The notes beneath the pieces were generated by a model. It did no database searches. It saw only the letters and a program-made list of their open reading frames with translations, and was not told the DNA's origin. From positions 46,284 through 110,283 of the IMG/VR virus record IMGVR_UViG_3300010354_007935: a stretch of 64,000 nucleotides of DNA; one strand, 5' to 3'. This document shows, piece by piece, positions 26,003 through 61,615 of this stretch. The DNA is from a virus. Its lineage: Duplodnaviria > Heunggongvirae > Uroviricota > Caudoviricetes. Within the stretch, counting starts at the first letter, position 1, and the number at the start of each line of letters is the position of its first letter. The position numbers and the translations under genes are program-made.

Positions 26003-26003
26003 A

Positions 26004-44577: not shown

Positions 44578-44796
44578 TTACAACCTATAAATTACCCTAC
44601 CTTTTGACAAGTCGTATGGGCTGACTTCTACTTTCACATTATCACCTAAGATAATGCGAATCTTGTTTTGCTTTAACCTACCACCCATGTAACAGAGTAA
44701 AGGGTTGGGCATATTGTCCACTTTAACCCTAAACATGTTTCCTGGTAATACTTCGTCTACTTTGCCTGTGAGTTCAATAATATCGTCTTTAGCCAT
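44578..44796 (-). CDS. infA: translation initiation factor IF-1 (S1-like OB fold)
   Basis: 72 aa. ...[54 protein letters not shown] is colinear with bacterial IF-1 (...TMFRVELENGH...[33 protein letters not shown]). Confidence 0.85.
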   Translation of the reverse strand: [72 protein letters not shown]

Positions 44797-45844: not shown

Positions 45845-45870
45845 TTGTGCCTCTGTGTGTAGTTAATCGG

Positions 45871-45966
45871 TGCAGACGGTAGGATTCGAACCTACAAAGG
45901 CAGCTAATAGCCTAGCCCTGTTCCCTCCCCGAAGGGAGGAGGTCTACCAATTCCACTCACGTCTAC
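45871..45966 (-). tRNA. tRNA-like element (class-II-like, atypical core)
   Basis: rc gives GTAGACG...GGAATTGGTAGA...GTAGG-TTCGAAT-CCTAC-CGTCTGC-A. This forms a 7-bp acceptor stem, a canonical T-arm (GGTTCGAATCC) and a Leu/Tyr-type D-loop. The central 45 nt contain a perfect 6-bp hairpin with a UUCG loop and do not fold into a canonical anticodon arm. Confidence 0.45.
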
Positions 45967-46522: not shown

Positions 46523-48001
46523 ATGGAAGTCATATTATTAACATCAGTTTTGCCCTATCGTCTAGATGACAAAAATGTACAAGGAAGATCCTTGTACAGG
46601 GGTATGGGTGCCTATCAAGTAGCTTGGTATTTGCGAGAACACAATTATAACGTTCAAGTTATCGACTTTGTTTTCCAACGATCCGAAGCAGAGGTTGTTG
46701 ACGCTGTTAGCAGATATGTAACAGACGAAACAAAAGTAATTGGATTTGGGGTATTGGGGAACACAGTATATGATAGGCTACTATATCTTAGAGTCGCTAG
46801 CTTAATGTTTAAGCTCAAGGAAAAATTTCCTCGATTAAAATATGTTGGTGGCGGCCCAACTGCCAATCGTTTTGATTGGTTTTTGCCTCCGAAGTTGTTT
46901 GATCATATTATTGTAGGGCATGCCGAAGACACTATGCTTGCCTACTGTAATCATGTATTTAGAAACGGGCCTGCTGTTCCTTTTGAAATTAGTGCTCGCG
47001 GGAATAGACTTATCAAAGAATCGTTCTCAGTTCCAGTTGAAAAAAAATTTGATATACAGCATGATCGACATAGGTGGCACGAACGCGACTTTGTACAACC
47101 CGGCGAATCTTTACCAATTGAAACTACACGCGGCTGTATCTTTAAATGTAAGTTTTGTCAGTATCCGTTAATTGGAAAGCATAAGCTAGATTTTCTTCGA
47201 GATATGGAACTAATTAAAGAAGAAATGATAGATAATTATAATAAGTTTGGAACTACAAACTATTACATGTTAGACGATACTTTTAATGCCGACAAAGATC
47301 GTGTCGAAGCTTTTGCTAACATGGCTGCTAGTTTGCCTTTTAAAATAAGATACGCAACATATCTTAGATTAGATCTAATAGAAGCTCACAGACAAACAGA
47401 AGATATGCTTAAAGAGAGCGGTCTATTTGGTGCATTTTTTGGTGTAGAAACTTTTAATAAGGAAGCTGCGTCTCTCATCGGAAAATCTTTTAGTGGAAAA
47501 AAAGCTAAAGACTACCTTCCAGAGCTAGCCCATCAAAAATGGAATAGTGAGATCATTATCTTCTGCGGAATGATAGCAGGCATTCCTCCAGAGACAGTCG
47601 AAGAACTTTGGGAAACAAATCAATGGTTAAAGGATAACAATATCAATGGGTGGCATTGGAACGGTTTACATTTAAGTAATCACCACATCAAAGAATGGTC
47701 CAGCGAATTTGAACAAAATGCAGAGCAATACGGATTTAGATTTACAGGCCCTGATCAATGGGCACACGGCGAATATCATACATCGCAGAAAGCTCGTCAG
47801 TGGGCGCTGGACTTAGTTAAAGATTCTATTTCTCATCAACGTACTGCTTCATGGAACGGAATTGAATTGTTAAATTATCCTTCTATGACCACGCATGAAA
47901 TCTTAACTCGCCGAGTTAAAGACTATAATTTAGATCATCCTGTGCATGCTGACAGGAAAAAATTCCTAGATAATTATTGGTATCAAATTATGAATTCTTA
48001 A
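46523..48001 (+). CDS. B12-binding (class B) radical SAM enzyme
   Basis: 492 aa. N-terminal Rossmann-like B12-binding region (...VIGFGVLGNTV...), then ETTRGCIFKCKFCQYP (CxxxCxxC). Only plus-strand enzyme gene at the island edge. Confidence 0.7.
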   Translation: MEVILLTSVLPYRLDDKNVQGRSLYRGMGAYQVAWYLREHNYNVQVIDFVFQRSEAEVVDAVSRYVTDETKVIGFGVLGNTVYDRLLYLRVASLMFKLKEKFPRLKYVGGGPTANRFDWFLPPKLFDHIIVGHAEDTMLAYCNHVFRNGPAVPFEISARGNRLIKESFSVPVEKKFDIQHDRHRWHERDFVQPGESLPIETTRGCIFKCKFCQYPLIGKHKLDFLRDMELIKEEMIDNYNKFGTTNYYMLDDTFNADKDRVEAFANMAASLPFKIRYATYLRLDLIEAHRQTEDMLKESGLFGAFFGVETFNKEAASLIGKSFSGKKAKDYLPELAHQKWNSEIIIFCGMIAGIPPETVEELWETNQWLKDNNINGWHWNGLHLSNHHIKEWSSEFEQNAEQYGFRFTGPDQWAHGEYHTSQKARQWALDLVKDSISHQRTASWNGIELLNYPSMTTHEILTRRVKDYNLDHPVHADRKKFLDNYWYQIMNS

Positions 48002-49253
48002 GATCACCTATACTTGTAAGTATAGTTGGTGCGTCTAGAAGATCTTGGTCTAAATCATACACCGGTTGGAAATTAACTACAGGACCAAGTTTATAGTATT
48101 TCCTCCAAGATTTAAAACCAAGTAATCCTTTTACTGGGTCGTAATCTAAAAATTTCTTATCTAGAGATCCAACTAGATTTTCCAAGTCTGATACCATCAT
48201 TTCCCATATCTTAGTACCGGAGTGATGGCGATAGAACCAGTCGTCGTGTCTGCCTAGTAACATTCTGTCAGGCTTGCCTGCTTGATAACTCCATTTCTTG
48301 ATTGCTGGATAGATAGCAGGGACAATGCCTCTTTCATAAACACCTGCATTAAATGTAACAGAATCGACTCTAGGCAATGCTGTTGGTGTATCAGGTCTTT
48401 TAAGCCTGTCATCGTTGATCAGCATCATGTCGTAAACATTCCTATTTTCTGGCCGCATTAAAAATCTGGCTGCTAAATGTGCCTGTTTGACTATCATTAA
48501 GGGAAGTTCAGGACTATGATAAAAAAATATTTGATCCGTGTTTGGATGATTTATTGAATTATACTTGTTATTATAAATGTTATCTCTAAACATAATATAA
48601 AAATGATCTTTAGATCTAACAATTGAGGGTTTATCAATACCTTGAACAACCGCAATCCTTTTTCCAGACTCTGCAATACGTTTTAAATGTGTAAGGCGAT
48701 CTAAATTATAACGGCCAGCCATAGTTGGGTGTAACCAGTCGTTACATTTAAGTAACCAATCGTCTGCTTTATAATTCAGCATGTCCTGAAAGTAATCATG
48801 TAATGTAACTTTGATTTTAGGATATTTTTCTCGTATTGTATTAAGCCACGGAATCTGAGTTAAGAAAGTTTCTTCTATAGTGTTTTCAACTCTCGTATCC
48901 GACGGATCAGGATTCTTCCAATCTCGTAATCCTTCTAACGGAGCACTTCCAACTACTTCATCTATGTGCAACCCGTTATTTACAAAAGCGTGAAACATGT
49001 TTGTACTGTCAGCGCCGCCACTACAGAACATTACAATATAATCGTATTTTTCTCTTATCTGTCTAGCTCGTATAGCATAAAATTCATCTATGCTAGTTGT
49101 CGGCTCTTGTGTCCAGTCTATTGCTGAAAAGATATTATCATTGAAAACCCACTCCATATCTGTTCGTAGTTGCTGGGCTTTAAACATGGCCATAATTTTA
49201 TTATGAAATTTTTCTGTACCAACTTTATAATACCCTAAATCGTCTAAGTTCAT
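47988..49253 (-). CDS. PP-loop ATP pyrophosphatase family protein (AsnB-C-terminal / amidotransferase-like), paralogue 1
   Basis: 421 aa. YIVMFCSGGADSTNMFHAF (SGGxDS PP-loop). Confidence 0.55.
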   Translation of the reverse strand: MNLDDLGYYKVGTEKFHNKIMAMFKAQQLRTDMEWVFNDNIFSAIDWTQEPTTSIDEFYAIRARQIREKYDYIVMFCSGGADSTNMFHAFVNNGLHIDEVVGSAPLEGLRDWKNPDPSDTRVENTIEETFLTQIPWLNTIREKYPKIKVTLHDYFQDMLNYKADDWLLKCNDWLHPTMAGRYNLDRLTHLKRIAESGKRIAVVQGIDKPSIVRSKDHFYIMFRDNIYNNKYNSINHPNTDQIFFYHSPELPLMIVKQAHLAARFLMRPENRNVYDMMLINDDRLKRPDTPTALPRVDSVTFNAGVYERGIVPAIYPAIKKWSYQAGKPDRMLLGRHDDWFYRHHSGTKIWEMMVSDLENLVGSLDKKFLDYDPVKGLLGFKSWRKYYKLGPVVNFQPVYDLDQDLLDAPTILTSIGDLKNS

Positions 49254-50584
49254 TCTAAGTATCCTATATCCCTTCTATAGGTAAATTGACCTACATATTG
49301 TGTATCTAAGTAATCATAAATTCGTTTCGCTGCTTCCTGTCTTGAATTAGCTGTAGTTGTAAACAACGAATGTTTAATATAATATCTTTCAATGCCCATT
49401 GTTGCTCCAGCACATGTTTCAATACTTTGAATTATATTATCAGGTATGTTTTCAAACTTTGGTAGAAATGATGCAGGCCTGAGCCAGTCGTAAACACGAT
49501 TAAACACTCGTACAGAAACTGTAGACTTATTATTATGGATTACATCGGGGATCGGAAGATCTGCACTTGCCGCATAAAATAATTCAGATAAGTTATTTTC
49601 AACAGAGCCTAAAATTGAGCATAATTCAGGGTCACCACTTCGAGTATTAATTTCTAAAATATACGGAACATTATTCTTGTCAACAGCTATGCCTAAAAAT
49701 ATAAATCCCCGATAAAAGTCGTTTGATTTGCCGAGGTAGTCTTTTAAAAAATTAAAAATTTTATCGGCATATTCGTGTACTATCGGATCAGGATCGACGT
49801 TGTAACAACCAAGCCCAACAGTATTATACCCGCTGTCGCCGTCTTTTAATTTTTTATAATCTCTTGCAGAACCTAAATATTTCCAGCCGCTACGATTAAA
49901 CAATGCATGATAAGAGTACTCTCGTTTAATTTCCATGTATTCTTCTAGTACAATTTCTGTATCAAGATTTATGTTTGTAAGTTGTGCGTCACCGTTAACT
50001 AAGTACCCAAATAGTTCTTCAAAAACTGTTTCGTAATTGTCGTCGTCGACAATAATTGTTTGTCTGCCTGACTGATATACAAAATCCAACTTTACTACAA
50101 ATGGTCGTGCAAGACTTTTAAAATTTTTATAAAGATATCGCCCGTCCATTTTTTGATATTTTGGTGTTGGAATACCACATTTAGCAAGAAGTTGTTTGGT
50201 TAGATGTTTACTTCTTTCTAAATCTGTAATTTTTGGATTAACAAAAAAATAAGGTATTTTTCTATCTTGCAAATAATTGTGTATAAATGAACTTCGAGGA
50301 ACTGGGAGCCCGGACGCTAAAACAAAGTCGATTTTTTTATCTTCTGAAAATTCAGCAAATCGTTTCATGGCATTACCTACATTGAGATCGTAAGGTAACC
50401 ATGTAGTTATAGGTTCGTAGTTTTCAGTTGCCTTTACTCCAACAGCAGCTCCAAAATGATAAACGTGTGAATCCTTTTTTAGTAGCTGTGCTAAATGGTG
50501 GTAAGGGCACACCGATGACAATATAGCAATATTCATTTTTGAATTAATTTTATTACCCAGAATGTTGGATCTAATTCCCACCAA
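49250..50584 (-). CDS. ATP-grasp ligase, PurD (GAR synthetase)-like
   Basis: 444 aa. ERSKHLTKQLLAKCGIPTPKY (cf. PurD EGSKAFTKDFL...IPTAEY) and ILEINTRSGDPE (cf. PurD EFNxRFGDPE). Confidence 0.65.
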   Translation of the reverse strand: MVGIRSNILGNKINSKMNIAILSSVCPYHHLAQLLKKDSHVYHFGAAVGVKATENYEPITTWLPYDLNVGNAMKRFAEFSEDKKIDFVLASGLPVPRSSFIHNYLQDRKIPYFFVNPKITDLERSKHLTKQLLAKCGIPTPKYQKMDGRYLYKNFKSLARPFVVKLDFVYQSGRQTIIVDDDNYETVFEELFGYLVNGDAQLTNINLDTEIVLEEYMEIKREYSYHALFNRSGWKYLGSARDYKKLKDGDSGYNTVGLGCYNVDPDPIVHEYADKIFNFLKDYLGKSNDFYRGFIFLGIAVDKNNVPYILEINTRSGDPELCSILGSVENNLSELFYAASADLPIPDVIHNNKSTVSVRVFNRVYDWLRPASFLPKFENIPDNIIQSIETCAGATMGIERYYIKHSLFTTTANSRQEAAKRIYDYLDTQYVGQFTYRRDIGYLE

Positions 50585-51321
50585 TGACGACCGCCGTAAT
50601 TGGGATTTTTAGGGTCTCCATGATGATTGTTGTGCCAGCATTCTCCTTGTGTTAAAGGAAACAACCAAGGTATATTTGTACTATCGTCCTTTGTTGCGTA
50701 GTTTTTATATCCAAGATTTGGATAATGTACTACACTAGTCTGCAAACAAAATACATGTAATGTAATTAGCGCAGGCAACACTAGTAGGTAAAAGAAAAGA
50801 TCGATACTAATTAGTGCAGTGATTCCGTAAACTAACCAAATTATTTCTGTGTAGTATTTGTGAGAGAATACTACATCAGGATCTCTTAATAATTCTGGAA
50901 CTCTCCTGACACTTACATCGCCTTCTTTTAAAGTAAACATCCACGTAATATAACTGTGCCAAAATCCGTGCTTCGGACTATGGGGGTCCAAATCTGTGTC
51001 ACTGTGACGATGGTGTGCTCCTCTATGTATTCCTACCCACAAAATAGCACTTCCTTGTACTGCAATCGTTCCGCAGAACAGTATAAATCTTTTCATCAGT
51101 CTGCTAACTTCAAAACCATGATGGCTAAACAGTCTGTGGAATCCTGCCCCTATTCCAATAAACTTCATAAAGAACCAACCAATAAGAGTAGCTATCCACC
51201 ACCAGGCAGGTGCTGTGCCGGCGATTAAATTATAAATTGCCCAAATACCAAAAATATGTAGAGGTACGATTCCTCCCCATAGATGTTTAATTGTTATGAT
51301 ATTTTTAATTACTTGGTTCAT
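50533..51321 (-). CDS. membrane fatty-acid (acyl-lipid delta-9-type) desaturase
   Basis: 262 aa. Three His boxes: HRLFSHH, HRGAHHRHSD, WHNNHHGDP. Multiple TM helices. Confidence 0.8.
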   Translation of the reverse strand: MNQVIKNIITIKHLWGGIVPLHIFGIWAIYNLIAGTAPAWWWIATLIGWFFMKFIGIGAGFHRLFSHHGFEVSRLMKRFILFCGTIAVQGSAILWVGIHRGAHHRHSDTDLDPHSPKHGFWHSYITWMFTLKEGDVSVRRVPELLRDPDVVFSHKYYTEIIWLVYGITALISIDLFFYLLVLPALITLHVFCLQTSVVHYPNLGYKNYATKDDSTNIPWLFPLTQGECWHNNHHGDPKNPNYGGRHWWELDPTFWVIKLIQK

Positions 51322-51866
51322 TTACTTTTCCAGCTACGTAGTGCATCAATGTTGCCTTGATAGATAATGTGCTGCCAACAGGTTTCGTCACATTCGTTTG
51401 GGCATGTTAGGTATTTATTTGTAGCTATCTTGAAGTCTAAATTAAATTGTTTCTTAAAATTCTTTGAAACCCATTTCATCCAATTATCAGTTTGCCTACT
51501 GATAAAAAATAACTCGTACTCCGTATTATCTTTTAACCACCGGATTTGGCTTAACGTTGTCTCACCCATTGCTAAACTTATTTCTTTCATTATTTGTTTT
51601 TTGTTAGTATGTTTCCATGTTCTATTTAAAATCCTGTAGGAATTATTTGGCCAGCATTCGCGTAAAGAAATACTTGAGCACATTTCAGGATTATTGTTGT
51701 CATCAAAACAAATAGTATAGGCCACAATACCAGCATAGTCAAAAGATTTTTTACTATAATTTTCCCATAACCGATGAGATCTATCGTTGTACTGCTGTTC
51801 TCTTAAGTTATCAAAAAGTTGATCCAGGTAATTGTTTGCGCCTGGGCGCCATGTTACTGTATACAT
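51318..51866 (-). CDS. hypothetical protein (182 aa)
   Basis: ORF only. Confidence 0.3.
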   Translation of the reverse strand: MYTVTWRPGANNYLDQLFDNLREQQYNDRSHRLWENYSKKSFDYAGIVAYTICFDDNNNPEMCSSISLRECWPNNSYRILNRTWKHTNKKQIMKEISLAMGETTLSQIRWLKDNTEYELFFISRQTDNWMKWVSKNFKKQFNLDFKIATNKYLTCPNECDETCWQHIIYQGNIDALRSWKSK

Positions 51867-52723
51867 ATATTTTTTAAGAATTCATTATAATCTAAAGACC
51901 ACCGGCCATCCCATTGTTTTCCTAGTGTGTATAGTTCATTGAAGCTTTCATGTTTAAAAATTTCTAACTTTTCAATCTTTTCATACCCATGATACTTGGG
52001 ACGTTCTTCAAGTTCAAAGTTACTGTCTCTATTATAAATTATGTACTTGCTAGAATCAGACCCAAGTTTTCCAGGAACTTGATTTAACGATAAATCTTTT
52101 ATTCGTGGATCTTCTAAAAACGTTCTCATCATCTCAGGAGTGTATCGATTAAAATGAGGAGTGCCGTCAATGTTATAGAGTTTATAATAGTTAACAATAG
52201 CATAGTCGTGTTGATATATAGTCACGTCCCACGAATCATTTTCGTTTTTTCTCAAGTAGGGTTCGCCTTCTCCGCATATAACAGTTCCATCTAATTGCCC
52301 AATTGCATATGCCGTAGCAGCCCTGTGATGTACAGCTGATTTTATTTCTTTTGATATCTCTAGCATCATGCCACTTTTTACAAAGTGATCAAAATCGATA
52401 TCAATAATTAAAGGTTTTAGATTTTTGTATCTGCAAAATTTTAATGCATATTCAAGGTCATGTGAGTTATAATCATTTTTGAATTTTATTATCACAGGAG
52501 TAAAATCTATCCCAGCATCTTTAAAAACTGAAACAGTATATTCACTATCAACACCGCCGCTATACATAATATAAATTTTTCCAGTTTTTATTGATTCAAT
52601 TTTTTCAGCAGCAATTAGACTTTCTTTGTAGTATGTTAGCCCTGGAGTGATTGGAGAAATGTCTACAAAGAAAGAGTTTCCTGAACCCCTAACTGTAATA
52701 TAGTTATTTTCTGATATATTCAA
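51854..52723 (-). CDS. PP-loop ATP pyrophosphatase family protein, paralogue 2
   Basis: 289 aa. KIYIMYSGGVDSEYTVSVF. Confidence 0.5.
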   Translation of the reverse strand: MNISENNYITVRGSGNSFFVDISPITPGLTYYKESLIAAEKIESIKTGKIYIMYSGGVDSEYTVSVFKDAGIDFTPVIIKFKNDYNSHDLEYALKFCRYKNLKPLIIDIDFDHFVKSGMMLEISKEIKSAVHHRAATAYAIGQLDGTVICGEGEPYLRKNENDSWDVTIYQHDYAIVNYYKLYNIDGTPHFNRYTPEMMRTFLEDPRIKDLSLNQVPGKLGSDSSKYIIYNRDSNFELEERPKYHGYEKIEKLEIFKHESFNELYTLGKQWDGRWSLDYNEFLKNICIQ

Positions 52724-53328
52724 GTTGTTATATCCTTGTATACTACATTTGAAAATGCTTCATGCGTTTTTGGGCCTGGATGTAACTTGTCGCTGCATAA
52801 ATCTAACATTGGATTAAACGTCGATTTTACATCTTTTAAATTAGATAATTTAATAAACTCAGGTTTATATTTTAACATTGGTGCTTGTTCAGCTATGTAA
52901 CTATAGTTGTTTAAATTTAAACTTTTTAGATAAAGCTCTGCGTGATGAATATAAACCCATGACATGAATATCAGGTGCTCCTCTGTTTGTGCACCAAGCC
53001 ATTTTGAATATCCTGGAAGCCAAGCACCATACCTTTCAATTTTACTTTTGTCAATAATTGCACCTCGGGAGAACATGGTCCATAATATAACAATTAAATC
53101 ATCATGGTTGAATTTAAAATTTAAAATTTTATATAAAATTTCTAAATTGCTTGCGCCTGGATCACTACAATTTATTAAATCGATATTTAATTTGTTACTT
53201 AATAATTTTGGCCAACTGTAATTGCTTGGTGTAGCACTATCTGCTGGGCAATCTTGAAGCAGACTACCATATGTGTAGGAGCAGCCAAATGCTACCAGCC
53301 TTGTCATTTTAATTTTTTGCCCATCCAA
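52720..53328 (-). CDS. SGNH/GDSL-like hydrolase paralogue (GCSYT variant)
   Basis: 202 aa. VAFGCSYTYGS, DPGASN, DKLHPG (DxxH). Confidence 0.4.
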   Translation of the reverse strand: MDGQKIKMTRLVAFGCSYTYGSLLQDCPADSATPSNYSWPKLLSNKLNIDLINCSDPGASNLEILYKILNFKFNHDDLIVILWTMFSRGAIIDKSKIERYGAWLPGYSKWLGAQTEEHLIFMSWVYIHHAELYLKSLNLNNYSYIAEQAPMLKYKPEFIKLSNLKDVKSTFNPMLDLCSDKLHPGPKTHEAFSNVVYKDITT

Positions 53329-53765
53329 TGGAATACAGGAACCATACCTACTTTATCAGCAGATGCTAATCGAACTTTATTGTTTTTGTGTATGTGACTG
53401 CTAATAGCCCAGCAACCTTTTTCTTTGGCTATTTGTTCAAAATATCCATGGAGTATTGTATAAATTCCTAACCCTCGAGAGTCTTCGTCAACAGCACTTA
53501 ATGTTATCCACAACAGTCCTTTATTTTCGTAATGTTCGTAAACAATATGTCCAAGGATTTTTCCATTCTCGTCTGTGGCGTACACCGCTGAACAATCGCT
53601 ATCGTTCCATGATGTAAACGGATATGCAAATCCGTTATCGATAAGAGTTGCCATTTGTCGTAAAAAGAAAGTAAATATTGGACTCATGCCTAAACTATCA
53701 GTGTGCATGATTTTAATTTCCTTCCCGGACTTATCGTATTCTGTGCCAAGTTGAGTAATCTTCAT
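53304..53765 (-). CDS. GNAT-family N-acetyltransferase
   Basis: 153 aa. SRGLGIYTIL (R-x-x-G-x-G/A acetyl-CoA loop). Confidence 0.45.
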   Translation of the reverse strand: MKITQLGTEYDKSGKEIKIMHTDSLGMSPIFTFFLRQMATLIDNGFAYPFTSWNDSDCSAVYATDENGKILGHIVYEHYENKGLLWITLSAVDEDSRGLGIYTILHGYFEQIAKEKGCWAISSHIHKNNKVRLASADKVGMVPVFHWMGKKLK

Positions 53766-53805
53766 GTTATTATTCTCCTGCCGTTATTTATAGAGCCAAG
53801 AATGT

Positions 53806-53845
53806 GTAGCCAAAAAAAAAGGCTCCGAAGAGCCTTTTAAAGATG
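53806..53845 (-). terminator. rho-independent terminator
   Basis: Minus strand reads AAAAGGCTCTTCGGAGCCTTTTTTTTT, downstream of the SBP-like gene. Confidence 0.55.
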
Positions 53846-53852
53846 TTACATT

Positions 53853-54809
53853 TTAGTGTAATTGAATCTTTTGTACTAAACCTGGTGTGAAGTAGTCTTC
53901 AAATTTGGCATAAACTACTTTAGTAGCTTCTGCAAAACGAGCTTGCTCATCGGCGCTCATCTTAACAACTTCGATACCATCTGCTTCAGCGCGAGCTTGA
54001 ACTAGAGCAATGTCTTCAATGCTCAGTGTGCGCTCGTGACGTGCAGCAACTTTAGCACTTTCAGCAACAACAGTTTGTAGCTCTGGGCTCAATGTGTTCC
54101 AGAAGTCTGTACCAATTAGAATACTTGTTAAGAACAAGCTGTGTTCTGTATGGTTAATAACTTTAGATACTTTGTCATGTCCAAGTGCATAAACACGAGG
54201 ATATGTACTTTCGCCAACTGTTACATTAGCTGTACCTAAGTTCTCACTTAGTTCTTCTAGTTCCATTGGAACTACATCAGCGCCAAGTGTCTTGAATGTT
54301 TCAATAGCAACTGGGCTGAAACTTGTACGCATCTTCATACCACGTAGGTCTTCAATCTTAGCAACGGTTTCGTTACCAGGAATAATACGGAAACCACCTG
54401 AATATGTAAATGCTAGTCCTTTAACTTTCTTGCTAGCTTCTAAGCTGTTTAGCAACTCTGCACCAACTTCGCCTTCAAACACACGACTAGCATGGTCGTG
54501 ATCCTTAAACAAGAATGGCAAGTCTAAAGCATAAAAGTCTTTGTTAATCTTACCTAATGTGATTGTATAAGTTTGGCTCATTTGGATAGCACCGCTGTCT
54601 AGCAAATCAACTAGACTGTGCTTGTCAACTACAACACCGTTGTTATACTTTTCAGCATATTCGCTCATGGTCATAACTTCGATTTCTAGTTGCTCTGGCG
54701 CACGAGCATTTACTTCGTCAGCAAATACTTTTGCAGCACGAATAAACAACTCGATTGGCTCGTGGGCTAAAACCCATTTTACGTGACGTTTTGTCATATG
54801 TTTCTCCAT
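53853..54809 (-). CDS. TRAP-transporter DctP-like solute-binding protein homologue, no signal peptide
   Basis: 318 aa. LDLPFLFKDHDHASRVFEGEVGAELL is colinear with DctP LDLPYLFRDYEHARKVLDGEIGQELL. No DctQ/DctM genes are present. Confidence 0.5.
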   Translation of the reverse strand: MEKHMTKRHVKWVLAHEPIELFIRAAKVFADEVNARAPEQLEIEVMTMSEYAEKYNNGVVVDKHSLVDLLDSGAIQMSQTYTITLGKINKDFYALDLPFLFKDHDHASRVFEGEVGAELLNSLEASKKVKGLAFTYSGGFRIIPGNETVAKIEDLRGMKMRTSFSPVAIETFKTLGADVVPMELEELSENLGTANVTVGESTYPRVYALGHDKVSKVINHTEHSLFLTSILIGTDFWNTLSPELQTVVAESAKVAARHERTLSIEDIALVQARAEADGIEVVKMSADEQARFAEATKVVYAKFEDYFTPGLVQKIQLH

Positions 54810-54874
54810 TTAACGTTAAATTAGCAGGTCATGACTCCTGCTCAATTATTTATGTCTTTTGGATATAGTAGCCG

Positions 54875-55774
54875 TTATCTGGTACTTTTTTGACTGTCTT
54901 CTATCTGTTTACGGTATTTAGACTGTAACCTTTTAACTTGATCTGTAGATTTTAAATAGAATTCTTCTGAGCTAACACCGTCAAATTGCGGTGGACGCAT
55001 AGCAGATAATTTAAAAATCTCTGCTTCTCCTACCCTGTCCGTAGCCTTAGTTAATATAAGTCCTATGGCTTTTCTGCGCCCTTCTGACATTTGTCGTTGA
55101 GCAACGGCTATGTTAAAAATATAAGGAGCATCTATGCCCATTTCTTTTAAAGTTTTAATCTTAGGTTCTTGCGGTAATCTAGTAGGACAACTGGCTGCAA
55201 TCATTTGCATCTTTGGATTTTTAGTTCGCAACGATTCGTAGCCTTCGTACTTGTCTATCACAAACTCGATTCCATTGTTGCCCACCATATTAACAAGGGC
55301 ATCATTGTTGCTTCTGAATACAATGTATCTAACATCAAAATTGTATTTTTCGCCAAGAGCAAGTGCTGTTAGATGCGCGGCATTACCAAATCCTACTCCG
55401 CCCACAACAAATTCTTTTTGTCCAGCCAAAGGTTTGTTGGTAACCACAGCCCAGCAAGCATCGCCAAACGCATATACAGGAACATAGTCATTTTCGTTTA
55501 ATCTTCCTGCGGCAACGTTTTCGACATATGCCGGTGCAATAATGGCAATACTATTTTCATCTAAACTCTTAACTGCGATAACTTGATTGCCTCCAGGTTT
55601 AAATTCTACTACAAATTTATAGATAGACTGCATAGCATTAGCTTCGTCTACTACTTTAAATAGTGCAGGGGTTGCACTATGTCCCGGACTATAAGGGCTA
55701 TAAATTTTAATTGTTTCTGTGGCATAAGCAATACTTGCAAAGTACAGTAAAACACTAACTAACAATTTCTTCAT
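54875..55774 (-). CDS. secreted periplasmic-binding-protein-like protein (possibly Bug/TctC-like)
   Basis: The likely start is MKKLLVSVLLYFASIAYA (signal peptide). ~300 aa alpha/beta-type composition. Family uncertain. Confidence 0.3.
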   Translation of the reverse strand: MKKLLVSVLLYFASIAYATETIKIYSPYSPGHSATPALFKVVDEANAMQSIYKFVVEFKPGGNQVIAVKSLDENSIAIIAPAYVENVAAGRLNENDYVPVYAFGDACWAVVTNKPLAGQKEFVVGGVGFGNAAHLTALALGEKYNFDVRYIVFRSNNDALVNMVGNNGIEFVIDKYEGYESLRTKNPKMQMIAASCPTRLPQEPKIKTLKEMGIDAPYIFNIAVAQRQMSEGRRKAIGLILTKATDRVGEAEIFKLSAMRPPQFDGVSSEEFYLKSTDQVKRLQSKYRKQIEDSQKSTR

Positions 55775-55775
55775 G

Positions 55776-57023
55776 TTATCTCCAATCAATTTTGTAATTT
55801 TGTAAGTTATGTCTGTAAAAATCCCGTACACTCGGATCATCCATATATAAAATTTCAAAGTTTTTATTTAAACCAAGTCTGGATACTGGTCGTCGATTAT
55901 TGGGCACACCCTCTACATCTTGCCTGTGCCCAATGACCCAAAGAGATTCTAATTTAACTTTAAAATTTTTATACCAGTCATTCCTGTCTAGATCCCAAAT
56001 ATAATTTTTAGCTGCTGTTTTATATGTTGAAGGAGTTTTTTTAATTTTTTGTCCGTTGTTATTGTTAACCATGCTCCATCTCTGATAATCGGGATAATTA
56101 AACCAATTAACAATTCTGTTCATAACGAGTTTTGTTTCTAGTGTATCGTTCATATAGATACTTCCGCGAACAGCACAGTTCAAATATTTAATATTGAAAA
56201 TCATCCACCAAAAGAAGTCGTGTAGACTTTGTATCGGCACAGTGGCGGTGTCAATGTTGCGAACAAGTTTTTCGTAGAATAATTTTCCAAATTTAGGATC
56301 TGATTGTATTCCTAAATAATTTATTAATAAGTCTTTATATTGAGAATAATGTATATCAGGATCGGAAATTTTGTATTTGATATTTTGTAATTCGATCTTA
56401 GATTCCGGACTTAGATTGTTTGTGTAAGCATCATAATTGTTATATAAAATTAACCCAAATAAAGTTCCAAAAATACAGTCGCCTTCATCAGCAGTAATAG
56501 GTGTATACCCAAGTGCTATAAGTTCATCATACTTGTGTTTGTCACTATCAAGTATAGTAAACTGATCTTGTATATACTTGTGCCAAAAATGAGGATTCTC
56601 TATTATAGTTTCGACGCTAGCGCATACTGCAACACTTTGTAATTCATCTTTAGTCAAATTTTTCAACAAAGCAGACATTACCATAGTACTGTCAATACCC
56701 CCTGATAGCATGACAGCAAACCTTTCGCCGTGTGATATACGCTGTTTAATGAGTAACGCTTGCTCATTAGAAATTTGATCAAACGTTTTATTAAAAGTTG
56801 GATCATATATAGGCATCTCGTAACCTGGAATTAGCTCCTGTTTCCAGGGCATGCTCCAGTCTCCGTTACGACTTACAAATCTACAAGGATTAAGTCTTTT
56901 GGCCATGTTAATATAAAATTGTCCACCATCTCCACAATTCTTATGGACTTCACTCCAAAAAGCATCGTGATAATAATTGAAACTTATACTTGAAAAATAA
57001 AGTGTATCGTCTGGTTTAATCAT
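55776..57023 (-). CDS. PP-loop ATP pyrophosphatase family protein, paralogue 3
   Basis: 415 aa. RFAVMLSGGIDSTMVMSAL. Confidence 0.5.
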   Translation of the reverse strand: MIKPDDTLYFSSISFNYYHDAFWSEVHKNCGDGGQFYINMAKRLNPCRFVSRNGDWSMPWKQELIPGYEMPIYDPTFNKTFDQISNEQALLIKQRISHGERFAVMLSGGIDSTMVMSALLKNLTKDELQSVAVCASVETIIENPHFWHKYIQDQFTILDSDKHKYDELIALGYTPITADEGDCIFGTLFGLILYNNYDAYTNNLSPESKIELQNIKYKISDPDIHYSQYKDLLINYLGIQSDPKFGKLFYEKLVRNIDTATVPIQSLHDFFWWMIFNIKYLNCAVRGSIYMNDTLETKLVMNRIVNWFNYPDYQRWSMVNNNNGQKIKKTPSTYKTAAKNYIWDLDRNDWYKNFKVKLESLWVIGHRQDVEGVPNNRRPVSRLGLNKNFEILYMDDPSVRDFYRHNLQNYKIDWR

Positions 57024-57024
57024 T

Positions 57025-57783
57025 TTAAAACAGCATGGTTGAAATATTTTTATAGATGTCTTTAGACAGAGGAATAAGTTTTTCTGGCATAGGTTTATTC
57101 AAAATTTTATAATAACCATTCATCAGGTAAGTTTGGTCTGTATAATTATGAACCCAGAAGTCAACTATTTTTTCTTCAGCTTCTTCGGGACTATGGGACA
57201 GATATAAAATTTTCCTAAGCTCAAAAAACAGTCCCTTCTTAAGTGTAGATCTGTCTGCCCTTGAGGATATGTTTTCTAAACAGTCGTCATCAACGTACTT
57301 GTCAGCAAATGTTTCAGTATTTTCAAAATTATAAAATGCATTTGTAATGTTGAGAACATACACTTGATCTTGCACAAATCTTGCATACCTTAACAATCTG
57401 TCTAGTATTTCTGTATTATCTACATAATCTTCAGGAATGCCCACTTCGGCAACCATGTCTTTATCATATAAGAATTTAAGCATCGGATGCTGCCTGCCAC
57501 CAACAATTGCGCTTGGGCCGATGCGTTGCGTTCTTTTATCTTCAATTGTATAGTTGATACAGTTTTGATTAGTCATAGTAAATGCATTTGGAGGCAACAT
57601 ATAAGCTATTGTTGGTAATTTAGAACTTAGAATTTCTGCTGTCTCAAGAGTTAGCCAAAAATCTTTATCATCTACTAAAATAAATCTATCCAGCCCTGGA
57701 GCAAATATGGCGTGCCTTCTTCGCTCTCCCGTTGAGTCAACATAAAAATGTCTATAAAAATTATTAAATTGATCCTGGATCAT
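57025..57783 (-). CDS. hypothetical protein (252 aa)
   Basis: ORF only. Confidence 0.3.
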   Translation of the reverse strand: MIQDQFNNFYRHFYVDSTGERRRHAIFAPGLDRFILVDDKDFWLTLETAEILSSKLPTIAYMLPPNAFTMTNQNCINYTIEDKRTQRIGPSAIVGGRQHPMLKFLYDKDMVAEVGIPEDYVDNTEILDRLLRYARFVQDQVYVLNITNAFYNFENTETFADKYVDDDCLENISSRADRSTLKKGLFFELRKILYLSHSPEEAEEKIVDFWVHNYTDQTYLMNGYYKILNKPMPEKLIPLSKDIYKNISTMLF

Positions 57784-58646
57784 AACAAAATTTCTCTAGC
57801 TTCGCTTGGGGATGCTGCCTGATAGCCCAATAATCGTAAAACATCAACAGCCATAGTTACTAGTTCTGCATTGTTTTTTGCTAATACACCTTTGCTAGTA
57901 TAGATGTTATCTTCTAAACCAACACGAACATGCCCGCCCATAATAGCTGTCATAGCAACCATGGGCATTTCCATACGTCCAATACCAAATGCACTCCACA
58001 CAGAGTTAGGAGGCAAGTCTCTGTAAGCATACATAAGTGCATTTGGTGTTGCATCCCACCCATACTTGATTCCCATTGCAAACTGCCAGAACGGGGTTCC
58101 TTTAATAGTTCCATCTGCAACAAGCTCCTTTGCTATTCGAAAATCACCACTATCAAAAATTTCTAGTTCTGGTTTGGTTCCTGCTCGCTGTACTAGTTCA
58201 ACCATTCGCTTGGTTACTAGTTTATGATTAATCCGTATGCCGCCTTCCGCTTGATGCATTGTGTTAAAGTCCATGCTGCATAAATCAGGTTTAATCATTT
58301 CAATGTGTTTAACTCTTTCTACAGCATGTAAGAGTAGACTCCCTGGAGCACCTTGAGCCAATTTATCTTTGCTAGGAATGTATAACGCACCCGGGCCTGT
58401 AGTTAAATTTATTAGAACACTAGTATTGTGTTTTTTAATTCTATCTACAGTATCTCTATACAGATCTACATCCATACTAGGGCGAGCACTTTCAGGATTA
58501 CGAACATGTATATGTACAACTGCGGCGCCTGCTTCAGCTGCTTCTAAAGCACTGGTAGCAATTTCTTCCGGAGTAACTGGCAAATAAGGTGTTTGTTCTT
58601 TACTAGTTACTGCTCCTGTAATAGCACAGGTAATAATGGTTTTCAT
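57780..58646 (-). CDS. beta-keto acid cleavage enzyme (BKACE/DUF849, 3-keto-5-aminohexanoate cleavage enzyme-like)
   Basis: 288 aa. MKTIITCAITGAVTSKEQTPYLPVTPEEIATSALEAAEAGAAVVHIHVRNPE, the N-terminal signature of the BKACE family. Confidence 0.7.
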   Translation of the reverse strand: MKTIITCAITGAVTSKEQTPYLPVTPEEIATSALEAAEAGAAVVHIHVRNPESARPSMDVDLYRDTVDRIKKHNTSVLINLTTGPGALYIPSKDKLAQGAPGSLLLHAVERVKHIEMIKPDLCSMDFNTMHQAEGGIRINHKLVTKRMVELVQRAGTKPELEIFDSGDFRIAKELVADGTIKGTPFWQFAMGIKYGWDATPNALMYAYRDLPPNSVWSAFGIGRMEMPMVAMTAIMGGHVRVGLEDNIYTSKGVLAKNNAELVTMAVDVLRLLGYQAASPSEAREILL

Positions 58647-59362
58647 AAGCTAATGCCCCCATCGACAACAATTGTTTGTCCTGTTAAGTGCTTGTTGAAT
58701 ATAACACTTTCTACCATCTGTGCAATATCTTCAGCTTCTCCTACACGTTTTAACGGAGTCATATTAGCAATCTGCTCGTTAGCGCCCGGAGGTTTAACTG
58801 CGCCAGACGTAGCTTTTTCAAGATATCCTGGTGCTATTCCAATTACTCTAATTTTAGGTGCAAGACTTTTTGCAAGTGTCTTTGTCATCAAGTCAATTCC
58901 GGCCTTAGCAGCACCGTAGGCCAGGTTACTAGTACTTGCTCTTAGACCAGCAGTCGACGAAATGTTTATAATAACACCATCGGACATGAAGGGGTGAAAC
59001 GCACGTATGGTAGAAAATGTTCCTCGAAGATTTGTGTTAATTATTTCGTCAAATATATCGTCAGTTAGTTCTTGTAGTTTTATAGGCTGGATACTTCGTG
59101 TATATCCTGCTGTATTAATTAAGATATCACAGCGTCCAATTTTTTGTGCTGCGGATACTAGGCTAGCAGAATCAGTTACATCGGCAAGAACCGCACAACA
59201 TTTTGGAGAAAGAAGACGCATTCTTGCATTGTATTCTTCCAAATCTCGTCTTACTAGTGCAACAACTGTGGCACCCATTCCTGCTAATCGATTTGAAATA
59301 GCCCAACCAACTTGTCCACAGCCTCCGGTTATTACTACAGTTTTTTCTCTTAGTGTATTCAT
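58643..59362 (-). CDS. short-chain dehydrogenase/reductase (SDR)
   Basis: 239 aa. TGGCGQVG (TGxxxGxG NAD(P)-binding), NTAG, YGAAKAG (YxxxK). Confidence 0.8.
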   Translation of the reverse strand: MNTLREKTVVITGGCGQVGWAISNRLAGMGATVVALVRRDLEEYNARMRLLSPKCCAVLADVTDSASLVSAAQKIGRCDILINTAGYTRSIQPIKLQELTDDIFDEIINTNLRGTFSTIRAFHPFMSDGVIINISSTAGLRASTSNLAYGAAKAGIDLMTKTLAKSLAPKIRVIGIAPGYLEKATSGAVKPPGANEQIANMTPLKRVGEAEDIAQMVESVIFNKHLTGQTIVVDGGISL

Positions 59363-60723
59363 ATATTATATAGTAGTTTAAATGCATCCTCTTTTAATTT
59401 TTTCTTATCAACTTTATGCACACTTGTTAATGGCATAGTTTTGATAATCCAAATATCTCGAGGGCACGAGTATGCCGGCAATTTTTGTAAGGCAAAACTC
59501 TTTATTTCTTCAATTGTAACATCATTAGTAATAGTGATAAAGGCATATGGCTTCATTCCTTTAATTTCGTCTTCTACACCAACAACCGCTGCTTCTCTTA
59601 CACAATCATGTTCTTCTAAAATAGATTCGACTTGTCTTGGATAAACATTATTTCCTCCGCACACAAACATATCATCGGCTCTGCCAACGAAATAGAAAAA
59701 TCCGTGTTCATCTTCTCTAAACAGGTCGTTAGTAATGAAAAAGTTGTCTTGGGTAAAATTATTAGATGTATTATTGTATCCAATCATCATAGATGGACTT
59801 TTTACTTGCAGTATACCGTCAACTATTCGATATTCGATACCTGGTATTCGACAACCAACGCTGAGTTCAGGCGTGGGTTTTGTTTTATGAAATCCAAAAA
59901 GCCCAGGGCCGACTTCAGTACTACCGTATGCAATTGATACGCCGGCACTGGGTATTCTATTTTTAACTTCTCTATATAGACTTAAACTTACAGGTGCGCT
60001 GCCCATAGCTATATGTTTTACGCAAGACAGATCTTGATCTGATAGTTCATTGAGTAGCAAAGACATCATAGTAGGAACTGAACTGACATAATTGATACGA
60101 TGTTCTAAAATTAAATCGATAGCTTTTTTGGGTTCAAATTTTACCATCAAGCATGCTGTTGCTCCGCTACAAAGACAAACTTCTATATTCGATAGCCCGT
60201 TCATGTGATACATTGGTGCTGCAACTAACATTCTAACTTTCGGCCAAAAATCAGATCGAGTCTTTTCTTTGAGTGTCCAAAGATGCCTGTGTGGGATTAT
60301 TACTCCCTTTGGTTTGCTAGTTGATCCAGACGTGTATAGAATAAAGGCTGGATCCGACTCGGCCATGTGCTCTACAATAACTGGGCCGGCTTCAAGGTAG
60401 TTTTTAAAATTGTTTTCTGTAAGAACAATTTTAGATTTGCTATCCTCTATTATGTAATTAACAAGAGTTTCAGGTAATCTATCGCTTATTAATACTGCAA
60501 CTGCACCAAGTCTTAATATTCCAAGATATGCAGTAATTAGATTTATACTATTTTCAGACTTAATAGCTACCCTGTCACTTTTACCAATACCGGCTTTTTG
60601 TAAACCGTTGGCATATTGATTGGCTAGGTCATCAACATCGTTAAAAGTATAGGAGCCATTATGGACTACTGCAACTTTATCATCTTTTCTGTTTAGTAGG
60701 TTACCTAGGTTGTAAGGGTACAT
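59359..60723 (-). CDS. AMP-dependent synthetase/ligase (acyl/aryl-CoA ligase-type adenylating enzyme)
   Basis: 454 aa. YTSGSTSKPKGVIIPH (AMP-binding core motif), YGSTE, GDMF... Confidence 0.8.
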   Translation of the reverse strand: MYPYNLGNLLNRKDDKVAVVHNGSYTFNDVDDLANQYANGLQKAGIGKSDRVAIKSENSINLITAYLGILRLGAVAVLISDRLPETLVNYIIEDSKSKIVLTENNFKNYLEAGPVIVEHMAESDPAFILYTSGSTSKPKGVIIPHRHLWTLKEKTRSDFWPKVRMLVAAPMYHMNGLSNIEVCLCSGATACLMVKFEPKKAIDLILEHRINYVSSVPTMMSLLLNELSDQDLSCVKHIAMGSAPVSLSLYREVKNRIPSAGVSIAYGSTEVGPGLFGFHKTKPTPELSVGCRIPGIEYRIVDGILQVKSPSMMIGYNNTSNNFTQDNFFITNDLFREDEHGFFYFVGRADDMFVCGGNNVYPRQVESILEEHDCVREAAVVGVEDEIKGMKPYAFITITNDVTIEEIKSFALQKLPAYSCPRDIWIIKTMPLTSVHKVDKKKLKEDAFKLLYNI

Positions 60724-61615
60724 TTTGATAAAATCTTTTAGTAATTGCTCCTGGGGTTTTAATAAAATTTATAATTTCATCGTAGGGGATTATAACTGCC
60801 TTATGTCTAAATTTTTTATTTCCGTGCAGATATTCAATAGGTTCAAACCCTGCATACTTAGGAAAATATGTTAATTCGTCGCCCCAATATTTTCCGTAGA
60901 GCAAAGGCTTAATGTAGTAATCCCATCTATCAACAGTTTTTAAATATTTGTTTGGATGTGTTACACCGTTACCGTCAAAGTATCTGGCGCTCATTAATGC
61001 CGCTTTAAAAATGTCATCACCAATAATACTAAGCAAAAACTCTTCTGTATTTCCATAAAAGATGTTTGCACCTTTTCGATTCAAACTTTCAAACGCCCGG
61101 GATCGTGTTATTTCTGGTAAGTAATACCCTTGCATGTAGCCAAATTTTTCATATCCGGGATACACATAGACAAACGGATCATGTACCATTTGTATAAAAT
61201 TATAGTCGTCGGGTAGCATGCTAAGAAATTTTCTTTGCAAAACATTGTTGCGGGAAGATATATCTAATTGATCAGAAATTTCAATAATCTCATCTTGACA
61301 AGCAAACGGGTCGATATCGATGATATATGTATTAAGACCGTATTTTTTATCAATCAGCTTTACTTGTTCTAGTTCATTATCATTATATCCAGGCAGGTGT
61401 AAGAATGCTGTCTCTAAAGGAATTCCTTGCGTGACAAAACTATGTATGACACTTTGACTATCAAGACCGCCACTATTTCCTAGCATAAACTTTCCGCCGT
61501 ATTGGTCAGCCAGGTCTCTAGCTCTGCGGTCAGACTCTTCACGCATATTACCAACTTCTCTGTTCCTAGAAGTCAGTTCGATAAAAAATTTGTCATCTTC
61601 AAATCCGTACTTCAT
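60701..61615 (-). CDS. PP-loop ATP pyrophosphatase family protein, paralogue 4
   Basis: 304 aa. KFMLGNSGGLDSQSVIHSF. Confidence 0.5.
   Translation of the reverse strand: MKYGFEDDKFFIELTSRNREVGNMREESDRRARDLADQYGGKFMLGNSGGLDSQSVIHSFVTQGIPLETAFLHLPGYNDNELEQVKLIDKKYGLNTYIIDIDPFACQDEIIEISDQLDISSRNNVLQRKFLSMLPDDYNFIQMVHDPFVYVYPGYEKFGYMQGYYLPEITRSRAFESLNRKGANIFYGNTEEFLLSIIGDDIFKAALMSARYFDGNGVTHPNKYLKTVDRWDYYIKPLLYGKYWGDELTYFPKYAGFEPIEYLHGNKKFRHKAVIIPYDEIINFIKTPGAITKRFYQNVPLQPR

Follow-up and report, generated by a model that had tools for sequence, protein, structure and literature searches.

A metabolic island in a large uncultivated phage encoding four divergent, glutaminase-less PP-loop proteins

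The DNA analyzed here, a stretch of 64 kb referred to as the window, contains a metabolic island of approximately 17 kb (46.5-63.4 kb) that belongs to a large uncultivated phage and runs past the end of the window. Four minus-strand ORFs of the island carry a PP-loop motif, preceded in each case by a hydrophobic strand: P1 (FCSGGADS), P2 (MYSGGVDS), P3 (MLSGGIDS), and P4 (GNSGGLDS). The genes and features of the island are the following:

46523..48001, plus strand: B12-binding radical SAM enzyme (Pfam Radical_SAM 6.8e-13, B12-binding 1.5e-5), convergent with P1, at the downstream edge
47988..49253, minus strand: P1, a 421-aa glutaminase-less PP-loop protein with a predicted AsnB-type synthetase fold
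49250..50536, minus strand: ATP-grasp ligase, GARS_A/PurD-like (Pfam GARS_A 3.8e-23), directly upstream of P1
50533..51321, minus strand: membrane di-iron fatty-acid-desaturase-like protein (Pfam FA_desaturase 3.1e-15)
51318..51866, minus strand: 182-aa protein with no significant Pfam, NCBIfam, or PHROG match
51854..52723, minus strand: P2, a short P2/P4-type PP-loop protein (289 aa, SGGVDS motif)
52720..53307, minus strand: GDSL/SGNH-like hydrolase (Pfam Lipase_GDSL 8.6e-4, sub-threshold)
53304..53765, minus strand: GNAT acyltransferase (Pfam Acetyltransf_1 6e-9)
53817..53838, minus strand: predicted intrinsic terminator (hairpin and T-run; scan and sequence), between the DctP-like and GNAT genes
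53853..54797, minus strand: leaderless (cytoplasmic) DctP-family solute-binding protein (Pfam DctP 6.4e-51)
54875..55774, minus strand: exported TctC/Bug-like solute-binding protein with signal peptide MKKLLVSVLLYFASIAYA (Pfam TctC 9.7e-4, weak)
55776..57023, minus strand: P3, a 415-aa glutaminase-less PP-loop protein with a predicted AsnB-type synthetase fold
57025..57783, minus strand: unk252, partner of P3 by gene adjacency
57780..58646, minus strand: BKACE, beta-keto acid cleavage enzyme (Pfam BKACE 1.1e-93)
58643..59362, minus strand: short-chain dehydrogenase/reductase, SDR (NCBIfam SDR-type families, down to 3e-45)
59359..60723, minus strand: AMP-forming acyl ligase of the ANL family (NCBIfam acyl-CoA / o-succinylbenzoate-CoA ligase, 3e-91 to 1e-67, all below equivalog cut-offs)
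60701..61615, minus strand: P4, a short P2/P4-type PP-loop protein (304 aa, SGGLDS motif)
61612..62418, minus strand: Rieske-type oxygenase (weak NCBIfam Rieske-oxygenase matches), directly upstream of P4
62455..63375, plus strand: radical SAM enzyme, MoaA/TrsS-like (NCBIfam 4.9e-29, PHROG radical SAM), divergent, at the upstream edge

The ATP-grasp ORF as listed extends to 50584 and likely starts at Met17 (50536), and the GDSL/SGNH-like ORF, listed to 53328, likely starts at 53307; their orthologues in the syntenic locus L082 have 428 and 195 aa, respectively. Three His boxes (HRLFSHH, HRGAHHRH, and HNNHH) are present in the desaturase-like sequence, of which related contigs may have as many as 8 paralogues in one locus, and the 182-aa protein is conserved in L082, L004, L005, and L120. 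The Rieske-type oxygenase contains the motifs CPH...CQYHGW and DVDHIPVVH, and Pfam Rieske is matched by its L082 orthologue. The B12-binding radical SAM gene is also syntenic in L082, and in a syntenic relative the island goes on with an acyl carrier protein.

An earlier note on this DNA had assigned the four PP-loop genes to one operon. The co-directional genes indeed mostly overlap, with remaining gaps of 65-88 nt, but a strong predicted terminator (AAAAGGCTC-TTCG-GAGCCTTTT followed by a T-run, with a 9-bp stem, a TTCG loop, and at least 9 T) gives two putative transcription units instead of one. Its position (53838-53817) would separate an upstream unit containing P4 and P3 from a downstream one containing P2 and P1.

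A six-frame scan of the window detected exactly four SGGxDS sites, one in each of P1-P4, against a chance expectation of 0.035 (mean of 200 shuffles of the window; maximum 1), and the relaxed motif [STA]GG.D[ST] added no further site in the window. The motif residues are also conserved within the families: S78, G79, G80, A81, D82, and S83 are invariant in the P1 alignment (50 sequences), as are S107, G108, G109, D111, and S112 in that of P3 (47 sequences) and G50, D52, and S53 in that of P4 (45 sequences), where S48 is at least 90% conserved. Thus, the PP-loop described in the earlier note is real in all four ORFs, shuffles and the P1, P3, and P4 alignments both speaking against spurious matches.

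The joint alignment of P1-P4 showed 17-26% identity with very divergent flanks. Pairwise BLAST connected P1 with P4 (1e-4) and P2 with P4 (5e-5), and hhalign extended the likeness to 232 columns, nearly full length, for P2 and P4 (99% probability) and to 162 columns for P1 and P2 (95.9% probability); for P3, the alignment to the other three was limited to 43-58 columns around the motif. A P2 profile run against the window recovered P1, P3, and P4 and no other ORF. The flanks are therefore very divergent, but not unrelated, as the earlier note had it. P1-P4 are best read as four anciently diverged, probably active members of a little-known branch of PP-loop ATP-pyrophosphatases.

The AF2 models obtained for P1 and P3 (pLDDT 89) resemble over 30 PP-loop enzymes of solved structure, and the full-length match of the modelled proteins is to AsnB-class enzymes. 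Beyond the PP-loop core, the models have the synthetase-domain fold of the AsnB family (AsnB, beta-lactam synthetase, CarA, TsnB9; PF00733). A Rossmann-like fold is assigned to P2 and P4 only through hhalign to P1 and sub-threshold Pfam hits. In contrast with the AsnB family, P1-P4 lack any N-terminal Ntn glutaminase domain, even a degenerate one, share 7-11% identity with it, and are shorter (289-421 aa versus about 500-560), and P3 would have a separate obligate partner, unk252. None of P1-P4 starts with Met-Cys, and Pfam and NCBIfam detected no glutaminase (GATase) domain either in them or in any neighbour, in agreement with the earlier note.

No Pfam or NCBIfam model reached its cut-off for P1-P4. 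P3 scored 18.7 bits against PF00733 (cut-off 21) and 17 against TIGR01536 (cut-off 267), neither of which matched P1, P2, or P4. Against PDB sequences, the P3 profile found only the PP-loop of human ASNS (E 0.0095), and the P1 profile found nothing meaningful. QueC, which like the defence proteins Cap9 and QatC has the PP-loop core in common with P1-P4, is the commonest sub-threshold Pfam match of P2 and of the P4 family. P2 scored 18 bits against Pfam QueC (cut-off 22) and 14.1 against the TIGR QueC model (cut-off 150), its QueC, MnmA, and NadE matches covering the N-terminal region only; in the P4 family, QueC was matched by 27 of 45 members (best E 2e-4) and NAD_synthase by 16. The family alignments revealed no conserved cysteine cluster: no Cys is invariant in the P1 and P4 families, and only Cys283 in that of P3. 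This bears out the earlier by-eye impression that a QueC-type C-terminal zinc cluster is lacking and, together with the sub-threshold scores, leads us to reject the idea that P1-P4 are simple QueC/ExsB duplicates; thiolation chemistry was likewise discarded because conserved cysteines are absent. The RNA-binding domains and catalytic Cys/Fe-S features of tRNA modifiers (TilS, MnmA, ThiI, TtuA/NcsA) were not found in P1-P4, and N-acetyl-sugar amidotransferases (WbpG/PseA/LfnA type) are not the closest class by fold or sequence.

Neither megablast of the region nor tblastn of P1, P2, and P3 gave a match among 50,697 records of deposited phage genomes. For each of the four families, however, unnamed homologues run into the hundreds among phage contigs from metagenomes, and the families are widespread in uncultivated aquatic phages: more than 522 P1-type matches were found in IMG/VR using the P1 family alignment as query, P2-type proteins form 1147 clusters at 50% identity (E<=1e-3), and 172 homologues of P4 were found, none with a Pfam domain. 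A P1 profile run against GTDB retrieved no cellular relative, and our literature search found no paper on these families or on the island. The number of SGGxDS-bearing ORFs per locus ranges from 1 to 6. All four types occur together with ATP-grasp and GNAT genes in the compact locus L083 and in the syntenic L082, L090, L095, L098, and L120.

Gene order in related loci revealed recurrent associations. Among unique cases, unk252 has a co-directional P3-family gene directly downstream in 47 of 48 (in a separate count, 55 of 57 unk252 copies adjoin P3), and the ATP-grasp gene has a P1-family gene directly downstream in 9 of 11. For 30 of 50 unique TctC-like homologues the next gene upstream is of the P1 or P3 family, and for 16 of 50 the next gene downstream is DctP, P1 followed by the exported TctC-like gene being a further recurring pair. 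A signal peptide was predicted in 47 of 53 TctC-like homologues and in none of 33 DctP-like ones, which in phages and bacteria alike have the conserved N-terminus RWVLAHEP; the DctP-like protein matches solved TRAP binding proteins (4e-29), and its GxK[IM]R motif is intact. Some members of the P4 family are fused to a GNAT domain, and the C-terminal domain of these fusions shares 32% identity (3e-22) with the GNAT of the island.

By gene neighbourhood, unk252 appears to be an obligate partner of P3. Its family profile has no match in Pfam or PDB, and Pfam searches with 21 members returned only noise. A fifth, degenerate PP-loop paralogue, in which PGLDRF would resemble SGGLDS, was rejected as an identity for unk252 (hhalign probability <=0.4%). 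Another idea is that unk252 might be an AsnB N-domain that has become detached; no Cys follows its initiator Met. The comparative data thus point to separable modules, namely unk252-P3-(TctC)-leaderless DctP, ATP-grasp followed by P1, Rieske oxygenase followed by P4 (linked to GNAT by the fusions), and P2, so that P1-P4 would not be an obligate set. The triad of unk252, P3, and leaderless DctP occurs in phages and in bacteria, and constitutes a compact, testable unit.

The region is a mobile metabolic island. We propose with moderate confidence that P1-P4 are ammonia- or amine-dependent amide synthetases, with an AsnB-like fold but no glutaminase, acting in a small-molecule pathway independent of NRPS. 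They would bind ATP at the SGGxDS loop and adenylate a small-molecule carboxylate, after which ammonia or an amine would displace AMP to give an amide, as suggested by the fold class; the binding proteins may capture carboxylic acids that feed the pathway. The four may act in succession on one scaffold, as the earlier note envisaged. The island would most likely assemble or tailor an amide-rich small metabolite without NRPS, for instance an N-acylated amino acid or an amidated peptide, along the lines of the AsnO/Ngg pathway, which makes N-acetylglutaminylglutamine amide and in which GNAT acyl transfer, ATP-dependent peptide ligation, and AsnB-type amidation yield a capped peptide amide (PMC8070244). 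As in that pathway, GNAT, ATP-grasp, and AsnB-like enzymes are encoded together, and GNAT fusions of the P2/P4 type exist elsewhere. However, AsnO is a full glutamine-dependent AsnB, whereas P3 matches TIGR03104 only with E 0.0074 over the PP-loop, and the island has four PP-loop enzymes and many other genes, in a phage, the likeness being one of enzyme logic. The NRPS-independent dapdiamide pathway employs the AMP-ligase DdaG, the AsnB-like amidotransferase DdaH, and the ATP-grasp enzyme DdaF. The island likewise combines an AMP-forming ligase, AsnB-like enzymes, and an ATP-grasp in one cluster, a likeness of gene content that serves as a lead only.

Among the alternatives, the most probable, though rather unlikely, is that the PP-loop enzymes form independent modules, each of which, with its own binding protein, amidates or otherwise activates a different imported carboxylate and diverts the host's uptake of nutrients while infection proceeds, the four being a collection rather than a series. 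The frequent position of P1/P3-family genes directly upstream of the exported TctC-like gene agrees with this, as do the joint duplication of this pair in L013, L024, and L067, the minimal loci L053 and L069 (only P1-TctC-DctP, beside phage core genes), the variable copy number of SGGxDS ORFs, the many phage and bacterial loci with the P3 module alone, and the terminator dividing the region. Nevertheless, six loci keep all four types with ATP-grasp and GNAT, and the fusions to GNAT and the adjacency of ATP-grasp suggest that a molecule is built rather than simply trapped. In addition, no TTT/TRAP membrane component is encoded, so that uptake would rest wholly on host transporters.

It is improbable that P1-P4 act with the radical-SAM/SPASM enzymes on a ribosomal peptide or protein, for instance by forming a macrolactam or a C-terminal amide or nitrile. 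Lasso-peptide cyclases (McjC type) have an AsnB-like fold and are AsnB-derived, ATP-dependent formers of amides (lactams), the chemistry proposed here for P1-P4, and the window has an array of four radical-SAM genes (23784-28587), of which two encode SPASM domains, besides the ATP-grasp and GNAT genes. However, lasso cyclases need a precursor peptide and a leader peptidase/RRE; beside P1-P4, where genes overlap or are separated by no more than 88 nt, no fitting precursor ORF was found, nor did Pfam and NCBIfam detect a leader peptidase or PqqD-like RRE among the neighbours. The SPASM array lies 20 kb away, and the conserved partners (solute-binding proteins, BKACE, SDR) have small-molecule functions. 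An AsnB-type enzyme reported to make a C-terminal nitrile in a RiPP (PMC13060819) adds to the case for peptide modification.

More improbable still is base modification of tRNA or phage DNA in the manner of TilS, QueC, ThiI, or MnmA. The sub-threshold matches to these models, the tRNA and IF-1 encoded by the phage, and the ThyX, dCMP deaminase, and GTP cyclohydrolase I genes near the island in related contigs would fit such a role. Yet the matches are confined to the PP-loop region of 40-90 residues and all stay below cut-off, the fold agrees over its full length with AsnB-class enzymes, cysteines for sulfur or zinc chemistry are not conserved, TGT/DpdA, QueD, and QueE homologues were not recognized among the island genes, and bacterial contexts contain efflux, amidase, and NRPS genes. 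Finally, that one or more of P1-P4 is a dead scaffolding paralogue of the Ctu2/Ncs2 type is hardly credible, since despite the extreme sequence divergence and a degenerate post-PP-loop acidic motif in P1 (GIDKP) and P4 (HDP), which aligns with GEGEP of P2, SGGxDS is invariant or nearly so over 45-50 homologues of P1, P3, and P4, in long-lived, constrained families with 40-90% identity over hundreds of members.

Most auxiliary genes of phages encode lone enzymes taken over from the host; here, several unnamed enzyme families form variable multi-paralogue arrays with other ligases and solute-binding proteins. If P1-P4 are indeed amide synthetases, they would represent four new families of minimal, glutaminase-less enzymes of this kind, and an amide-rich product would imply a phage-encoded pathway resembling those of natural products, which might provide an osmolyte or a signal, modify the envelope, or trap nutrients. 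A bolder version of this proposal, put forward only tentatively, is that of an unnamed, largely virus-borne AsnB-like branch with up to six SGGxDS paralogues per 20-kb locus, in which the cytoplasmic DctP protein would hand a carboxylate to a split unk252-P3 synthetase, and the four PP-loop enzymes, ATP-grasp, AMP-ligase, and GNAT would make a new amide-rich metabolite during infection. Solute-binding proteins would be used unusually in such a hand-off, and the exported TTT-type receptor adjoins P1/P3-type genes.

A six-frame scan of the 64-kb window recovered exactly four SGGxDS motifs, one in each of these ORFs:

47988-49253, minus strand, PP-loop protein P1 (421 aa)
51854-52723, minus strand, PP-loop protein P2 (289 aa)
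55776-57023, minus strand, PP-loop protein P3 (415 aa)
60701-61615, minus strand, PP-loop protein P4 (304 aa)

The four ORFs are present as described in the earlier note, each motif being preceded by a hydrophobic strand. Spurious matches were ruled out: the motif occurred on average 0.035 times, and at most once, in 200 shuffles of the window, and its residues show little or no variation across 45-50 aligned homologues each of P1, P3, and P4, indicating functional features rather than chance matches. The finding of four PP-loop genes is real and merits experimental follow-up.

Searches of Pfam, NCBIfam, and PHROGs returned only sub-threshold matches for P1-P4, restricted to 40-110 residues around the loop and scattered among QueC, MnmA, Asn_synthase, NadE, LarE, and GuaA. 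When P1 and P3 were each compared with solved structures, the predicted folds showed both to be stand-alone AsnB-type synthetase domains; the remaining PP-loop classes, namely TilS, NadE, LarE, GMP synthase, and PAPS reductase, and likewise TtuA/NcsA, QueC, ArgG, and a sugar amidotransferase, aligned over a core of ~150 residues only and with lower scores. P2 and P4 are probably domains of the same type. TADEGDCIFG in P3 and GEGEP in P2 occupy the position of the AsnB motif SGEGSDEVFG, and hhalign placed GIDKP of P1, GEGEP of P2, and HDP of P4 as equivalent. Three of the six P3-like uncultured-phage proteins detected by Foldseek against viral models are automatically named "Asparagine synthase". 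As expected from the first inspection, no glutaminase domain was detected (Pfam/NCBIfam) in P1-P4 or in any neighbouring gene, and no conserved cysteine cluster was present in the P1, P3, and P4 family alignments. These absences rule out thiolases as well as QueC/ExsB duplicates.

The flanking regions, previously regarded as unrelated, are indeed extremely divergent (17-26% identity in a joint alignment of the four), but that description was overstated, since BLASTP (P1 vs P4, 1e-4; P2 vs P4, 5e-5), profile-profile comparison (P2-P4, 99% probability over 232 columns; P1-P2, 95.9% over 162 columns), and a P2-family HMM, which among the window ORFs matched P4 (4e-20), P1 (1e-6), P3 (9e-6), and no others, all connect them. 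The profile match of P3 to the other three is limited to 43-58 columns around the loop. P1-P4 are thus homologous despite their divergence, with P2 and P4 forming one short type, P1 a longer relative, and P3 an outlier.

A single operon, as proposed in the earlier note, was not found. An intrinsic terminator (53838-53817, minus strand; 9-bp GC-rich stem, TTCG loop, T-run), of textbook form, interrupts the seemingly continuous co-directional gene block and is followed by a good ribosome-binding site for the GNAT gene; hence, the PP-loop genes are spread over two or more transcription units. The upstream unit (minus strand) contains, in order, genes for a Rieske oxygenase, P4, an AMP-forming ligase, an SDR, a BKACE protein, the P3 partner protein unk252, P3, and the exported TctC-like (54875-55774) and leaderless DctP-like solute-binding proteins. 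After the terminator, the downstream unit (minus strand) encodes GNAT, an SGNH-like hydrolase, P2, the 182-aa protein unk182 (51318-51866), a desaturase-like protein, an ATP-grasp enzyme, and P1. Radical-SAM genes on the opposite strand flank both island ends. L082, an NCBI metagenome-assembly contig with conserved synteny, reproduces the whole island and extends it past the window end by an Asp/Arg-hydroxylase-like gene, a PP-binding carrier protein, and a second desaturase.

Multiple PP-loop paralogues are the rule in these phages, as 59 of 81 P1-centred loci carry 2-6 SGGxDS ORFs within ~20 kb, but the partner genes differ between loci. The orphan unk252 (57025-57783, minus strand; invariant residues R33, S53, S54, and K55), whose family has no Pfam or PDB match, is followed directly downstream by a same-strand P3-family gene in 47 of 48 unique cases. 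It occurs in 52 of 57 P3-centred loci (3 from exact-protein look-up, 54 from a viral-contig scan), many of them lacking P1, P2, or P4 inside 10 kb, and may represent a synthetase subunit that became detached. Among 50 unique TctC-like genes, a P1- or P3-family gene lies directly upstream in 30 and a DctP-like gene directly downstream in 16; in several loci, P1-TctC pairs are duplicated as units. Signal peptides were predicted in 47 of 53 TctC-like proteins and in none of 33 DctP-like proteins, whose N-terminus RWVLAHEP is conserved in phages and bacteria. Since no DctQ/DctM membrane component was found near the DctP-like genes linked to PP-loop genes (window 53853-54797, minus strand; L140-L145, L001, L004, L047, and other loci), a periplasmic-binding-protein family appears to have been put to use in the cytoplasm.

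Of 11 ATP-grasp genes, 9 are followed by P1. Some P4-family proteins carry a C-terminal GNAT 32% identical to the free-standing window GNAT, and fusions of P2-type proteins to GNAT exist in either domain order. A 7.4-kb contig (L083) holds adjacent P2-like, ATP-grasp, P1-like, P4-GNAT fusion, P3-like, and unk252-like genes, and all four PP-loop types also co-occur in L082, L090, L095, L098, and L120. The quartet is conserved within a sub-lineage, but each module is also distributed more widely on its own. Fatty-acid-desaturase-like membrane proteins are expanded as well, with up to eight paralogues within a single 20-kb locus of a phage contig (L016, IMGVR_UViG_3300042484_002676) and further expansions in L009, L099, and L105.

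The window is phage-like, with tail-fibre and virion proteins, endonuclease, DNA ligase, metallophosphoesterase (PHROG), and a tRNA-Arg. Among 50,697 deposited phage genomes, neither a nucleotide match nor a tblastn match for P1, P2, or P3 was found. Metagenome-wide protein searches yielded 278 homologues of P1, 333 of P3, 172 of P4, and 1147 clusters (50% identity) of P2 relatives, all unnamed or "hypothetical"; the P2 representative library carries no annotation, and on P1, P3, and P4 homologues the only Pfam domain was the GNAT of two fusion proteins among P4 relatives. IMG/VR holds >522 P1 and 54 P3 relatives, on contigs up to ~370 kb. The families are carried mainly by viruses and have expanded into arrays of variable make-up. 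In a related huge-phage contig (L003, ENA scaffold, 373 kb), the island adjoins a Bax1-I/YccA-like gene and lies beside genes for GTP cyclohydrolase I, a carrier protein, a UDP-glucose/GDP-mannose dehydrogenase-like protein, a NodU/CmcH-type carbamoyltransferase, and dCMP deaminase.

A scan of GTDB species genomes detected no P1 relatives but did detect P3 relatives on 8 contigs (GC 33 to 65%) from MAGs assigned to Bdellovibrio-like bacteria, Burkholderiales, Xanthobacteraceae, and Alphaproteobacteria. There, unk252 adjoins P3 in 7 of 8 contigs, joined by leaderless DctP in 6 (L140-L145) and by SDR, BKACE, and AMP ligase in three. The three loci scanned for flanking genes have bacterial flanks: MBOAT, a DUF1574 protein, and a PLP enzyme in L141; two AcrB-type pumps, an amidase, and an ABC ATPase in L142; and an NRPS C-A-T module, a fatty-acyl-AMP-ligase-type enzyme, hydrolases, a desaturase fusion, and two P2-like genes in L143, where the P3 module is within a lipopeptide-like cluster. 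The P3 module is thus a cellular small-molecule module, one shared with phages.

Each PP-loop enzyme would adenylate a carboxylate, an amide then being formed with ammonia or an amine, and the ATP-grasp, AMP-ligase, GNAT, carrier protein, and hydrolase fit a pathway that builds or tailors an N-acyl or peptidyl amide without an NRPS, a reading that is somewhat favoured. An enzyme combination of this kind has a documented precedent in the AsnO/Ngg pathway (PMC8070244), where acetyl transfer and peptide ligation are used together with AsnB-type amidation to make N-acetylglutaminylglutamine amide. The binding proteins are members of carboxylate-binding families, and the GxK[IM]R motif is retained in leaderless DctP, which suggests that these proteins capture or present the acid substrates. 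Another precedent is the dapdiamide pathway. That all four enzymes act in series on one scaffold, as first proposed, is doubtful: the quartet stays together in a sub-lineage, but the terminator and the separable modules speak against it. The one-operon, one-scaffold view of the earlier note thus has partial support only. Independent capture-and-trap modules are a rather unlikely explanation, RiPP or protein modification is improbable, nucleic-acid modification still more so, and inactive scaffolding paralogues are scarcely credible. The superfamily and its likely chemistry are already known; the P1-P4 families themselves are unnamed, falling under every curated threshold, and no description of their coupling to solute-binding proteins and unk252 was found in the literature.

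Elsewhere in the window, on the minus strand, an array of four radical-SAM genes (23784-28587) lies by a DUF6071 gene (23018-23806); two of its members (24749-26002 and 26004-27224) have an unusual domain order, with SPASM placed N-terminally of the radical-SAM core, and comparable arrays occur near P1-family genes in L011, L024, L049, L060, and L067. The same strand carries one 3607-aa ORF that lacks any Pfam domain at E<=1e-3 (4373-15196), an Fe/Mn superoxide dismutase (15834-16397), a 2OG-Fe(II) oxygenase (18202-18834), a Bax1-I/YccA-like membrane protein (30999-31694), a phage-encoded IF-1 homologue (44578-44796; 72 aa; Pfam eIF-1a, 4e-19), and tRNA-Arg(TCG) (45869-45966).
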